Program-made: the position numbers
Assembly: GCA_017466695.1 (NCBI GenBank)
Contig: JAFTTR010000002.1
Location: 166,832 to 230,831 of the forward strand
From: Alphaproteobacteria bacterium
GTDB taxonomy: Bacteria; Pseudomonadota; Alphaproteobacteria; CAAHEQ01; UBA3637
Length of the DNA stretch: 64,000 bases
Direction: 5' to 3'
In this document: in pieces, positions 27,001 to 33,000 of the stretch
Position numbering within the stretch: the stretch's first letter is position 1
How the letters are laid out: each line of letters starts with the position of its first letter

Positions 27001-30000
27001 CCTTGTTGTCCCCGATAGTCTTTGACCGAATTGCCAAAGCGTGGCCTTAACCTATTGTTAACACCCGCATTCTCAGGGAATGGATGTATTTTATAGAAAA
27101 AGCTTTTAAAAGTCAAGTATTTTTTTAAGATAGAAGCAAATTAAAATACCCAAAAAAATGTTTTTTTATCTATTCCTACTTTGAGGTTGATAAGCTGCTA
27201 AAGGCTCTTCTTGCACATAAGTTCCAGCCTGTTGCAATGTGTTTTGAGCCACACCAAGCTGTCTTGCCAAATTTGGATTAGCCTCTCTCAACCCTGCAAG
27301 AACCATTGCTTTAATTCTTGGATCGCCTTTATCTAACTCTTTGATACTCTTTAACTTATCTTGAATAGGAACCTTAGGATTTGTTAAATAAACAAGCTTT
27401 GTAACAGAATATAACCTCCTATATTCAGAGGGATTTTCATTTAAAAGATTATTAAACCAGCGTTGTCTATCAGCAGCAGACATTTTACTTGTATCCAGCA
27501 CATAATAAATTGGATCCTCTTTCAAACTTCTAAACCTAACTTTTCTTTTAACTTCATCTGTTTGACTGATAAAATCAGTATATCTATTTTTTTTCATATC
27601 ATTTAAAAAATCTTCAACATAATCAGATTGTTTCTTAGATTTAGAGTCCATTTTATTATAATCTTTACGCGTTTGCTTGTGAACTTTCTCAATATTGTTA
27701 AATTCTCGATACAATTCTTCTGTTTGATTGTTTAAATTAACCCACTCTTTAGCCGTTTTATAAACATCATCCGTTTTAAATTTTGGATCAAGCTGTGGAA
27801 ACGCAGATGGCGTTTGTTGACAATATCCGATATTGTCTTCTAATGTTTTTGCATAGCTCGGATCTTGTTTTTGAATATCTTTTAAGATTTTTTCTCTCTC
27901 AGCTGCTGGCAAAGAGGCCAAATAAACAGCTGACATTAGCATCTTTTTACGACAAATAGCTTTGGATTTGTTGAGCTTGTCGAATTTTTCTTCAAACCTT
28001 TTGGTCTGTTCATAGGTTTCACCCACAACTGTGCGCTCTTTTCCATCCTCACCAATCACTTTAGAATCCCACTTTATAATACCTCTTTTCAACAAATCAA
28101 CAACCCTGTCTGTATTACTCCAAAAAGCTCTTGAACTTGATAAAAGTTGTTGTGCTTCAAGACGAAGCTGTTCCATTTTGATTCTTTGTTCAGAAACAAA
28201 AGCTGTCGCTGCATCTTGTTTTTCATCCAATCGAAACTCTTTGATAGCGATATTAATTTGTTCCTTAATCCCTGCTGAAATCTGGGGATCTGAAGAGAGT
28301 TGATCCAAGCCTCGTGCATCTTTGTATTGATGAATATAGGTCATAAAAACAAGCTTTTCAGCCGAACTCATTGAGGAAATATTTTTACCCACAAATGAAT
28401 TTAAACCCCGAACATAGCTTGGTTCTTTTTTACTTTGACTTGTAACCATTTTCTCCCCCCATTTTGTAAAAAAAGGACGTTTTTTTTACAAATATTTTGC
28501 CCTTACCTTTTTATTATACCATAATTTAGGTTTCTTGTATACTAATTTTTGAAAAAAAAGGCTTTTTTTTGAAAATTTTCCTTTAAAGAGAAATTCTATA
28601 CAAATGTGTAAAAAAAACGGTCCTTTTTTTTACACAAACCAACTTCTTTCTAACCTACTCATTTTAAACAGGTTTTAAGGTACAAAAAATCATTTTTTTT
28701 GCAAATCAGAAAAAACAGGCTCTAACCATTTGTGCGTTCATTTAATGAACGCCCTAAATTTGGCAAGACTTGGTTTTGCGCAATATTTTGTGGCTTAATT
28801 TGATGCCTTCTTATCACATCAAGAATATATTCATTCTCTCGCATCATAACCCAATATAAAGCGCTTTTGCCATATTTATCTTTTATATTTATATCAGCTC
28901 CTGCTTGGAGTAACAAATCTAATATCTCATCATCATATCTGTCAACAGCAACTCTTGCAAGTGTTTGACCATCTTCAAAAGTAACATTCACATCAGCGCC
29001 TTTTTCAATCAAAAAACGAATCACTTCTTTTTTTTGATAAATAAATGCCCATTGCAAAGGCGTTTTATTCTCAAAACCAATCTCATTTATATCTGCACCT
29101 TTTTCAAGTAGTTTACCCGCCAATTCAATATCCCCACTTGAAGCAGCAATATTCAAAGGTGAAATCTCATTTTCATCTCTTAAATTCACATCAGCACCCT
29201 GTTCAATCAAAAACAGAGCCACCTCTTTATCCCCTTTTCGCATAAAACGAATTAAAGGCGTTTCTTTAAAAATATTTTGCGCATTCAGATTTGCCCCAGC
29301 TTCCACAAGCGTTTTAACAATATGATAGCAATTTTGAGCATGATAATATGTTTTTAAATCATTAGACAAATCAGGTGTATCTAAAGCAACAATAGAACCC
29401 CTATCATTACCACTTGCATAATGCAACGCTGTTTCTAATCGGCCATCTCTTCGATTAACATCTGCTCCCACCTCTAAAAGATTTTTAACCATATACAGTG
29501 AAGAAATCTTGGCTGCTTGCATTAAAATTGTCTGACCATCTTCACCCCCTTGCGCATTGATATCATGCCAATAATTAGCAAAAAGGCGATTACTTAAACT
29601 GCTCCAATCTCCTGTTCTTAAAGCACTCACACAACTTCTATATTGGTTTTGATATCTAAATGCAAATGTGTTTAACAAGTCTTCTGCTTGAAATTGGCGA
29701 TGTACTTGAGCCACTTTTTCAGCTGTTAAGCCTTGACCCCAATATTCCTCATTTATTTTCCCAGAACGCTGATACAAACTCGCCCCTTTTGAAACAAGCA
29801 ATTTTATAATCTCTTGATAGCCATGTTTTGCAGCCACCATAAGAGGGGTTAAATTTTCTTCATTATAAGAATGAAGGGGAACATTCTTTTTTAAAAGTTC
29901 TTCAACAGCTTTTATATCATTTGCTTTAATCGCTTCAAAAAGATTTGCTTCAATAGATGAAATTTGACTTGTTTGCATTTAACACCTCAATTGATTTTTA

Positions 30001-33000
30001 ACAATTACTATCCAATTTGACGAACAGAAGAAAAACTGTATTTAAGTTTTGTAAGTTTATCTAACGTTTCTTTTGACATAACACGTTCAAAAATTGGAAT
30101 CCAAGCATTTACAACCTCAGGAGCTTCCTCTTTTGCTGCTAAATACAAACCTCCAGCCAATGCGAGTTGCTGAATTAACAAATAATCTTCCCCTCTTGGA
30201 TTACACTTTGACTCATAAGGCAATTTTTTAACTTTTTGAACCAATTGTCTTGTTTGTTCTTCAAGAAGTTTTTTCTGTTGTTCCTCAAGGCGTTTTTGCT
30301 CTCTTTCTTTGTCTTTCTTTTCTTCCATCATTTGCTCAACTTTCCAAATTTTTTGAAGCATTTGATAGCGTTTTTCAAACCCATTTTCCTTATAAACAGC
30401 ATAAATTTTTGGATGTTCACTATCATTCATTAAATCAGACACTTTTAACAATCGTTTTAAATCTGTTCGCCTATTTATCTCACACTTAAAAACATTTGTT
30501 TTGTAGCTTTCCAACGGATAAAAATATGTTTTATCCTCTAATTGAATGCCATGATGCATTAAAACAGCAGCCATATTGACATCATCATTTTCGATTGCTT
30601 CTGCAATTCCTCTTGCGGCTTGACACTTTGTGGTCGACCATTTACAATCATCATCTGCCTTTAATTCATATTAAATAAAAGCACCTTGATTAATCAAATA
30701 ATCCACCAATGCCGTATTTTTACTTTTAACAGTTTCTAATAATTCATCATTAACGGAGGTATCCTTTATTAAAAAAGAATGCATATCAACATCATCAATA
30801 AATCTATTTCCAAGGACAGAAGTTCTAATAAAAGGCGTTGGACACTCAACATTAATATCAACAATAGGTGCATCATAAGACTTTTCTTGCTTTTTTCTTA
30901 ATTTTGCCCCTTTTGAAAGCAAAAATTTCACCATATCCATATCCCCATAATGACAAACCAGAGCTAAATTTGTTAATTTATTTTTTTAATATTAAAATTG
31001 ACAATTAAAACACTTAAAAAAACAATAAAAATGCAAAAAAACAGCTCTTATAAAAGAACTGTTTTTTCAACTCAAAAAGAAGAATATTAAATTTAGTACC
31101 CTTCTAACTTTTCATCAATTGTTACCCCTGGCAGATAATCAATTAATGGACGTTCAATAAAAGTATATGTCCCATAATCTTCATTCACATAAGCTTTCAT
31201 ACAAGCTCTGACACATGACACCATAATATTAGCTGTAAATTCTGGATTAACCCCTTCAGCTTCATATTTTTGATTCACTTGCATACCAGTACGTTCCAAA
31301 CAAACTGAATGGTTGAGCGTGTTATATTTGTTAATACTCTTAACTTCAATCACCTCTGTTGGATCATTTTTAAAATAAGGATCTGTTATAATTGCATTTT
31401 CAACAGCTGCAAAATCTGCATCTTTTTGAAGTTCAACATAAACTTTTCTTTTATGCTTCCCTCTGCCATTTGCAAGTGTTAAGGCCACAGCATCTTTAAC
31501 GCCAGGGACTTGTTTGACTTGCACAGTATGACCCATACTGCGACCTCCATTTTCACCTCCAAAAGTTGTGGAAGTAAACCCTGTGATAGAGACAATTTTC
31601 ATCAATGCACGAATTGCTGAATCGGTACCTGGATCCCATCCTGCAGCTGTGATAGAAACAACTTTTTTTGTCTTCGCCGAGATATCCAATTCCCTACGAA
31701 GTGAAACAATTCGGCTATGTTCGTCATAACTGTCAATGGTGTTAATCCCCATTTCGTGATATTGTTTAACGCGTTCAGGCACTTCACGTGATGGAATACA
31801 AAGAAGCGCAACGTCAACATCCCCTAATTCTTTAATATCTGAAACAACAACCGTATTTTCCAAATCTGGATCATCATATTTCAGTGAAGAGGCACGACGA
31901 ACAACCCCTGCCAATACCAAATCAGAACATTCCGATATCGCTCGTTTACAACCACGACCGACATTACCCCAACCAACAATTGCAACTGATATTTTTTGCA
32001 TTAATAAACTCCCGACATCGTTTGATATAAATTTTTGTAATCCCCAGAGGATCTAGCCCATGAATAATTTTGTTTCATCGCCATTTTACGCATTGAATTA
32101 ATGTGTTCTGGTCGATCATAGTACGTTGCATTTGCCCATCCAATCGTGTTGTACAAAGCACGTGATGAAATATCATTAAACTTAAATCCTGTTCCAAGAC
32201 CATAAGATTCATTGTAGTTTAAAATCGTATCTTCAAGACCCCCTGTGGAACGCCCAACTGGCAATGCCCCATAAGTTTGAGACACCATTTGTTTGAGCCC
32301 ACAAGGTTCATAAATAGATGGGACCAATGAAAAATCAGACCCAGCATCCATTAAGTGCTCTGTTTCTTGGTCAAAGCCAATTTTCACAGCAACTTGCCCT
32401 GGATATTTATGAGGTAATGAAGCAAAATAATCTTGTATCCGTGGATCACCATTTCCCATAATTGCAAATTGACAATGCATTGTTTGAAGCACTGGTTCAA
32501 TACATTCAGAAAGCATATTCACCCCTTTTTGCTCCGTCAAACGCACAGCCATTGAAAAGATTGGTTTGTAATCATCTTGAGCCAATCCAAATTCTTTGCG
32601 CAATTCTCTTTTATTTAAAAACTTACCATGTTTAAAATCTTCAAAAGAATATTGTTTTGGAATAATCAAATCTTTTGATGGATCCCACAACTTTGTATCA
32701 ATTCCATTTAAAATACCAACCAAATCTCCTTGACGTTCTCTTAAAAGGAAGTCAAGCCCTGCCCCATATTCTGGCGTCAAAATTTCACGAGCATAGTTTG
32801 GTGAAACAGTATTTAACTTATCAGCGAATCGAATACCCCCTTTTAAAAGGTTGATTCTACCATAATCTTCAAAGGCCCCAGCATTAAAATCACGCCAATC
32901 AACTTTTGCATATGGAACAACATCTGAACCAAAACGACCTTGATATGGCAAATTATGCAACGTTAATAAACTTTTTGCCTTTTGGAAGAAAGGATCATTA

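Follow-up and report, generated by a model that had tools for sequence, protein, structure and literature searches.

Neisseria-type minimal mobile elements (MMEs) are chromosomal cassettes that are exchanged by transformation and flank homology. Polymorphic toxin systems with immunity proteins of the ankyrin-repeat (ANK) type, Imm-ANK, exist, and an arm-spacer-arm layout is that of the lox/FRT/dif-type recombinase core sites. Invertons are exemplified by E. coli fimS and by the capsule and surface-protein promoters of Bacteroides (PMC11602134, PMC8748976, PMC11892184), and they occur in many phyla, Proteobacteria included (PMC11602134). Here we describe a locus that resembles each of these systems in part. 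It lies in a 64,000-nucleotide stretch of contig JAFTTR010000002.1 (positions 166,832 to 230,831; assembly GCA_017466695.1), called the window throughout, from an alphaproteobacterium whose lineage is uncultured and functionally almost unknown. Between the terminator of ddh and the promoter of rpsD, the window carries what is probably a strain-variable accessory islet of two cassettes in a recombination hotspot: a decaying operon for ANK proteins and a gene for an orphan protein, CC427, under a candidate invertible promoter.

The locus shares with MMEs the presence of alternative cassettes or an empty site between two conserved genes, an island that is far less diverged than its flanks, the absence of integrase and transposase genes from the islet (Pfam), and the presence of competence genes. 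It differs in its cargo, which consists of ANK genes and an orphan, and transformation in this lineage is putative. As in the known invertons, a short promoter segment (116 bp) lies between inverted repeats directly upstream of the gene that it would regulate, in a gut bacterium, and both orientations occur among genomes of one species; reversible switching is putative, with only one of nine assemblies flipped. In contrast to them, the sites here are lox/dif-like, with 13-bp, AT-only arms around an asymmetric 6-bp center, no recombinase was found in the window, and the regulated gene is a signal-less orphan rather than a fimbria, capsule, or known surface-protein gene.

Gene content and variable presence of the islet

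Open reading frame (ORF) calling placed four ORFs on the minus strand between rpsD (26333 to 26947) and ddh/glgA (31093 to 33485): one of 427 amino acids (aa) at 27166 to 28449, named CC427; one of 418 aa at 28722 to 29978, named ANK418; and two small ones of 188 aa (30008 to 30574) and 89 aa (30671 to 30940). The initial annotation had described three minus-strand genes, one of them interrupted, in a core context, and the ORFs were all found where it had placed them. The identities of the flanking genes are backed by Pfam, in a scan that took in every ORF of at least 120 aa of the window. An Rfam search gave no match inside the islet. The main features are listed below; all promoters in this study are predicted, as matches to a consensus in a scan.

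27126 to 31080 (3955 bp), no strand: the whole accessory islet, between the ddh terminator and the rpsD promoter, delimited by blastn against an empty-site locus (L006)
31034 to 31069, minus strand: intrinsic terminator hairpin of ddh, the left border of the hotspot, found in a terminator scan as a 16-bp stem followed by a T-tract and kept in all configurations
27088 to 27116, minus strand: predicted rpsD promoter TTGACT-17-TAAAAT, the right border of the hotspot, kept in every configuration
27166 to 28449, minus strand: CC427, a basic, all-alpha orphan whose residues ~4 to 105 form an N-terminal module shared with proteins of 410 to 949 aa
28722 to 29978, minus strand: ANK418, an intact 9-repeat protein (Pfam and repeat count), second gene of an ANK650-ANK418 operon
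30008 to 30994, minus strand: ANK650 pseudogene remnant, equivalent to residues ~341 to 650 of an intact 650-aa protein, with an in-frame TAA

We compared the gap between ddh and rpsD across related loci by tblastn of the window proteins and by look-ups of locus context; 113 loci were fetched in all (L001 to L113). A scan with Ddh, taking one genome per species, gave about 33 related loci, with Ddh identity ranging from 97% down to 51%. All of them belong to metagenome-assembled genomes (MAGs) labeled "Alphaproteobacteria bacterium" from human, rabbit, ruminant, and other gut samples; the lineage is recorded solely from gut metagenomes and is not a known intracellular symbiont. It may belong to the order named RF32 in GTDB. 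Look-ups of exact protein matches located the locus on metagenome contigs as long as 376 kb. The gap takes several forms:

L006, L007, L011, and L012: gap empty, with ddh directly adjoining rpsD
L008 and L010: ANK650 and ANK418
L090: two ANK650 paralogues and ANK415
L087 to L089: a CC gene alone
L086: ANK650, ANK418, and a CC gene

The window's own species has three alleles, represented by L086, by the window type, and by L111 to L113. The same site in close relatives is thus empty or differently filled between conserved genes, as expected of a cassette hotspot, and this synteny comparison bears out the earlier description of the block as a small insertion of accessory genes; no case was found in which relatives have kept its orthologues at this locus throughout. 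The insertion point can be placed exactly. Homology to L006 in blastn ends at window position 31081 and restarts at 27125, with the ddh terminator hairpin on one side and the conserved rpsD promoter and leader on the other, and in the empty sites the terminator is followed by 10 to 25 nucleotides (nt) and then by the promoter. In deeper relatives, ddh and rpsD are not neighbors. A 6.4-kb gap in L030 was considered as the same hotspot with other cargo and was rejected, as it holds ordinary core genes and reflects a different synteny.

The islet is made up of two independent cassettes, the ankyrin operon ANK650-ANK418 and the single gene CC427. The CC cassette (~27129 to 28721) begins immediately downstream of the stop codon of ANK418, and the upstream region that comes with it is homologous to that of L087.

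The rpsD leader at the right border (window 26948 to 27087, minus strand) spans ~140 nt between promoter and start codon, is almost invariant in the clade, and is partly conserved even in the distant L030. RNAalifold predicted three helices in it, with compensatory changes in 8 of 35 pairs, and Rfam gave no match. Possibly, the leader serves autoregulation by S4.

Exchange between species and decay of the ankyrin operon

Nei-Gojobori estimates of synonymous divergence (dS) set the islet clearly apart from its surroundings. Between the window and L008 or L010, the flanking genes dprA, plsY, recJ, glgA, and ddh show dS values of 0.74 to 1.75, versus 0.18 to 0.21 for ANK418 and 0.06 to 0.08 for the ANK650 remnant. 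Between the window and L087, CC427 has a dS of 0.27 and ddh a dS of 0.79. Synonymous divergence is therefore about 10-fold lower in the island genes (0.06 to 0.27) than in the flanks, and nucleotide identity in blastn is 94% for the island versus 76 to 80% for the flanks. These differences indicate recent exchange between species. The ratio of nonsynonymous to synonymous divergence (dN/dS) is 0.20 to 0.28 for ANK418 and 0.22 to 0.42 for CC427; the island range of 0.2 to 0.4 compares with 0.01 to 0.17 in the core metabolic and ribosomal flank genes, setting aside a fast-evolving pair of pilin-like genes, and it indicates that the island genes are functional now or were so recently, under relaxed purifying selection.

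The initial annotation had suggested comparing the GC content and codon usage of the block with those of its flanks. Neither GC nor GC3 deviates, both lying within 1 standard deviation of 41 core genes for the intact island genes, and a foreign base composition was ruled out. A phage or plasmid origin was likewise rejected, with no relatives in IMG/VR, INPHARED, or PLSDB. The islet thus combines the absence of mobility genes with cargo that is less diverged than its flanks, as in an MME, and its nature as an accessory insertion is strongly supported. Among the proteins encoded in the window are DprA, ComEC, and one that is pseudopilin-like. The most economical mechanism would be that species of the clade exchange cassettes when the conserved flanks recombine homologously, plausibly following natural transformation; loss would occur by deletion. 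The flanks themselves are a mosaic: glgA (32001 to 33485) has a dS of 0.24 versus L006, while ddh and recJ are at ~0.9, and rpsD has a dS of 0.15 versus L008. This pattern suggests that homologous recombination is frequent among these species beyond the islet.

ANK418 is a strong ankyrin protein (Pfam Ank_2, E = 2e-47) that matches every ankyrin Pfam family. The earlier count of eight or more canonical repeats agrees with ours, which is nine: seven canonical GA[DNS]x[NY] loops plus the N- and C-terminal caps. The gene follows ANK650 after a 29-nt gap, with its own ribosome-binding site (RBS), GAGGTG. The two small ORFs upstream of it are one frame cut by a single TAA, and ANK-like sequence continues upstream of the first ATG until a stop codon is reached. 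Intact ANK650 orthologues of 648 to 663 aa are present in L008, L010, and L086, the last of which is conspecific with the window (dS, ~0.03). Two lesions separate the window copy from these:

30967 to 30969, minus strand: deletion junction, at which blastn against L086 shows 1043 bp (L086 4483 to 5525) to be gone
30671 to 30673, minus strand: nonsense codon, CAA (Gln) to TAA, reading GAFIQY in L086, L008, L010, and L111 and GAFI*Y in the window, L002, and L005

The deletion takes out the -10 box, the RBS, the start codon, and the first 331 codons of ANK650, its left breakpoint lying between the -35 (TTGACA) and -10 (TAAAAT) boxes of the predicted promoter. The junction recurs in L002, L005, and L111 to L112. 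Because two independent assemblies, L002 and L005, carry the deletion as well as the stop codon, neither lesion is an assembly error. The gene, which the initial annotation rightly called an interrupted ANK plus Glu/Lys-rich (E/K-rich) gene, is more exactly a 5'-truncated pseudogene with a premature stop. The L111 to L113 allele, from three JGI samples, has the 5' deletion and no nonsense codon, and it has lost ANK418 by a separate 1198-bp deletion. The 5' deletion therefore came first; the stop codon then arose in one line and ANK418 was lost in the other. With the ANK650 promoter deleted and ANK418 second in the operon, the window ANK418 is left without its native promoter. The ankyrin cassette is decaying here, with ANK650 dead by 5' deletion and then nonsense, and ANK418 intact with its promoter lost.

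An AlphaFold2 (AF2) model of intact ANK650 (predicted local distance difference test [pLDDT], 73; predicted template modeling score [pTM], 0.68) shows an interrupted ANK solenoid and a 51-residue E/K-rich helix, and it matches ankyrin structures only. In its intact form, the operon, with its own predicted sigma-70 promoter, would encode signal-less ANK solenoids, that is, protein-binding scaffolds. Among 5.8 billion proteins, the ANK650 family counts 19 members; true orthologues of ANK418 number only ~8, and both families are restricted to this gut clade. A paralogue of ANK418 with 45% identity adjoins rpsB-tsf in L091 (9001 to 11250) and L092, beside a T5orf172/MUG113 (GIY-YIG-like) gene; the sample that yielded this paralogue locus also yielded the L008 MAG.

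A putatively invertible segment upstream of CC427

Alignment of the spacer between ANK418 and the CC gene in the window and in L086 revealed an inversion, absent from the initial annotation and observed newly here. In L086 (7889 to 8003), the 116-bp segment is reverse-complemented at 100% identity, with both flanks collinear. The elements of the segment in the window are as follows:

28491 to 28606, no strand: 116-bp invertible segment carrying the predicted CC427 promoter
28605 to 28636, no strand: distal recombination-type site, found in an inverted-repeat search, with 13-bp arms TGTGTAAAAAAAA and TTTTTTTTACACA and center GGACCG (coding strand)
28463 to 28492, no strand: proximal recombination-type site, with center CGTCC, one base shorter than the CGGTCC of L086
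28513 to 28541, minus strand: predicted CC427 promoter, TATACA-17-TGgTATAAT, extended -10, with 10 of 12 consensus matches plus the upstream TG

Each site has a 13-6-13 structure, with symmetric 13-bp arms around an asymmetric 6-bp center, and the centers GGACCG (distal) and CGGTCC (proximal, L086) show that the two sites are inversely oriented. The inverted repeats have 26-nt arms that are 85% complementary in the window and 27-nt arms that are 100% complementary in L086, 110 nt apart in both. The window has exactly two occurrences of the arm motif, versus 0 expected, and among the 113 fetched loci it is found at this site pair only, in conspecific loci. The predicted promoter faces CC427 in the window orientation, which we call ON; this orientation is shared by L001 to L005 and L111 to L113, and L086 has the inverted, OFF orientation. 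The arrangement is that of an inverton, with inverted repeats around a short intergenic segment and, by consensus scan, a promoter inside it that faces the downstream gene. Its reversed counterpart in the conspecific genome L086, at 100% identity, makes the segment a candidate phase-variation switch.

Inversion between the lox-like sites would turn CC427 transcription high or low. The proximal centers are mutated in ON alleles (CGTCC in the window, CGTTC in L111), and such centers would block strand exchange, which suggests locked-ON alleles in the window type and in L111. The switch of the window would accordingly be ON, probably locked by its mutated site. The length of the CC ORF, 442 versus 427 aa, was considered as a marker of orientation and was rejected, as L111 to L113 are ON; their CC gene has 15 extra codons that stem from a T-to-G change making an upstream ATG.

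When metagenome contigs were scanned for AAAAAAAGGACCGTTTTTTT, the yield was 14 unrelated hairpins, each of them single; a second switch was not among them, and viral contigs gave 0 matches. Nothing convincing was found when inverted-repeat-flanked promoters were sought upstream of other CC-family genes (L095 and L096). Midway along the segment, upstream of the promoter (window 28552 to 28570), there is another related palindrome, A8-GCC-T8, which may be a third recombination site or a protein-binding site.

Several observations weigh against reading the locus as an exchanged, switchable islet, which we nonetheless favor with reasonable confidence. Of the nine conspecific assemblies, a single one has the inverted orientation, which could have arisen just once, between two palindromes. 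Pfam detected neither a Phage_integrase nor a Resolvase domain in the window ORFs of at least 120 aa, and the promoters are called from consensus matches only. Competence is deduced solely from the presence of genes, and the low dS of the island could be due in part to gene conversion instead of import. Finally, the three proteins have no export signal and no catalytic domain, CC427 has no structural analogue, and the window has no secretion system.

Families and possible roles of the islet proteins

The initial annotation had described CC427 as a Lys/Glu/Gln-rich coiled-coil protein of 427 aa, which holds as far as composition and helical structure are concerned. The protein contains 11.2% K, 7.3% E, and 6.8% Q, with a net charge of +15, and its AF2 model, from an 8-sequence alignment, is all-alpha (pLDDT, 78; pTM, 0.49). 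Helices span residues 141 to 179, 226 to 261, and 269 to 311 and thus reach up to 43 residues; there is one small beta-hairpin, and the C-terminal 26 residues are disordered. CC427 has no match in Pfam, NCBIfam, PHROGs, or PADLOC, and Foldseek found nothing in the PDB or BFVD (best E values, 0.25 and 0.03; template modeling scores below 0.2). A syntaxin Habc domain suggested by a profile search of PDB sequences (E = 0.04) was sub-significant and compositionally biased and was not used.

Relatives of CC427 are few, with 2 matches among 5.8 billion proteins and, in an exhaustive HMMER search of 1.84 billion representatives, 7. Two distant full-length relatives of 382 to 408 aa share an (L/M)(P/S/T)xxER...K(x)DP motif, and three proteins of 410 to 949 aa match CC427 over residues ~4 to 105 only, at 50 to 59% identity. 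A 462-aa orphan beside a distant ANK cluster (L093) proved not to be related. A long CC-family member (in L095, region 382 to 4638) adjoins a serpin gene, and a short one (in L096, region 5065 to 18107) is surrounded by a transglutaminase-core gene and at least four ANK genes, in a locus that comes from a MAG whose ddh-rpsD site is empty. CC-family and ANK genes at these further loci amount to repeated co-location in the clade, and the lineage carries a sizeable set of eukaryote-like genes.

In a single chromosomal gap, lineage-specific genes have thus been gained, have passed between species, and have decayed step by step, with probable ON/OFF switching as well, and this combination marks the genes as contingency functions under changing external selection. 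The islet most likely serves a contingency function toward external partners, be they host, gut protists, phages, or competitors, rather than a housekeeping one. At present, it matters as a well-resolved accessory locus, not as a new mechanism. It is a compact natural experiment, it offers a candidate inverton, open to testing, from beyond the well-studied Bacteroidota, and it presents two tiny orphan families, the CC427-like and the ANK650-like proteins, as candidates for host, protist, or phage interaction.

More specific roles are all improbable on present evidence. The initial annotation had hinted at a secretion-system-dependent effector repertoire; on this proposal, the ANK proteins and CC427 would be delivered into host or eukaryotic cells through a type IV (or type I) secretion system whose genes lie elsewhere in the genome. 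The eukaryote-like ANK repeats fit this proposal, as do the accessory, laterally exchanged, and putatively phase-variable nature of the block, which is like that of contingency or virulence loci, and the ANK-rich regions, serpin, and transglutaminase of the clade. The C-terminal tails are disordered, polar, and weakly basic. No signal peptide or transmembrane segment was detected in the three island proteins, whose maximal 19-residue hydropathy is 0.9 to 1.4 (versus 2.5 to 2.6 for the neighboring pilin-like proteins), so that export would need a non-Sec route. Like Legionella AnkX, AnkH, and AnkY (NCBIfam NF0430xx), the island ANK proteins are accessory, strain-variable ANK solenoids, but they score 5- to 20-fold under the cut-offs of the Legionella equivalogs. 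The best NCBIfam effector match was to AnkY, at 112.7 bits versus a cut-off of 600, all others being lower, and the islet proteins belong to no named effector family; the matches reflect generic repeat similarity. Components of type I, III, IV, or VI secretion systems were sought by Pfam among the window ORFs of at least 120 aa, and none was found. No translocation signal was identified, and no C-terminal motif is convincingly common to the families; a shared export motif in the form of RNR/RNG endings was unconvincing once the tails of all families had been listed beside controls. Further, the ANK cassette is being lost within this species, and the lineage is known only from gut contents.

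The effector proposal had also leaned on a "VirB8-like" orphan at 7488. That ORF (7488 to 8327, minus strand) has no family support, matching nothing in Pfam, NCBIfam, PHROGs, or PADLOC, and a PPR match in PDB sequences was spurious. It is bitopic, with one transmembrane segment and a C-terminal domain of ~210 aa, and solely this topology fits VirB8. Taken together, the evidence neither refutes nor supports the effector proposal, which we regard as unlikely. It is equally doubtful that CC427 and its relatives form a previously undescribed family that is expressed phase-variably and exported by a non-Sec route, with the ~100-aa N-terminal module for targeting, and that this family, with the ankyrin, serpin, and transglutaminase genes, would serve intimate association with eukaryotic cells such as host epithelium or gut protists.

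An anti-phage defense cassette in a defense-type hotspot, with the ANK proteins as sensors or scaffolds, is very unlikely. The variable hotspot, lateral exchange, and putatively phase-variable neighbor would suit it, and PADLOC gave matches to PDC-M72A (E = 1e-48), "Ankyrin," and MzaA, but these run through the ANK repeats only, in several repeat-register stretches. The partner genes of the matched systems are absent, and no nuclease, NTPase, TIR, Sir2, or other effector domain was found in the three proteins.

Least probable of all is a polymorphic toxin-immunity system in which the CC427 family are toxins, with an N-terminal trafficking domain and variable C-termini, and the ANK proteins are Imm-ANK immunity proteins: although the N-terminal ~100 aa are shared with the 410- to 949-aa proteins of different downstream sequence, and CC and ANK genes lie side by side at two unrelated loci, it is contradicted by natural genotypes that combine an ON CC promoter with dead, deleted, or absent ANK genes. 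In the window and in L111 to L113, the CC promoter is ON and ANK650 is dead, L111 lacking ANK418 as well, and L087 to L089 have the CC gene without ANK genes. The resemblance to such systems, in which variable C-termini follow a conserved N-terminal module and ANK genes are close by, also breaks down in gene order, the ANK genes lying upstream of CC427 and no immunity gene downstream. Pfam, PDB, and Foldseek gave no toxin or trafficking domain for CC427, C-terminal or otherwise, and 418 to 650 aa is large for immunity proteins.

Three further features of the window lie outside the islet. Two adjacent genes (22446 to 25709, plus strand) encode proteins of 501 aa (Laminin_G_3) and 580 aa (with a weakly GspG-like N-terminus), both with prepilin-type hydrophobic N-termini; the pair evolves very fast between relatives (dN, 0.19 to 0.58; dN/dS, 0.14 to 0.35), which suggests surface-exposed pseudopilin or adhesin-like proteins. 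Between PPDK and NUDIX genes (20400 to 21540) lies a gene-free gap of 1.15 kb, with 18 to 22% GC, strongly negative GC skew, and no Rfam match, which is likewise present in the gene calls of the public contig. Lastly, the convergent gap between rpsD and a pilin-like gene holds a 158-bp tandem repeat (25919 to 26265) in 2.2 copies that are 96% identical, and in related loci the copy number differs and some copies are inverted.

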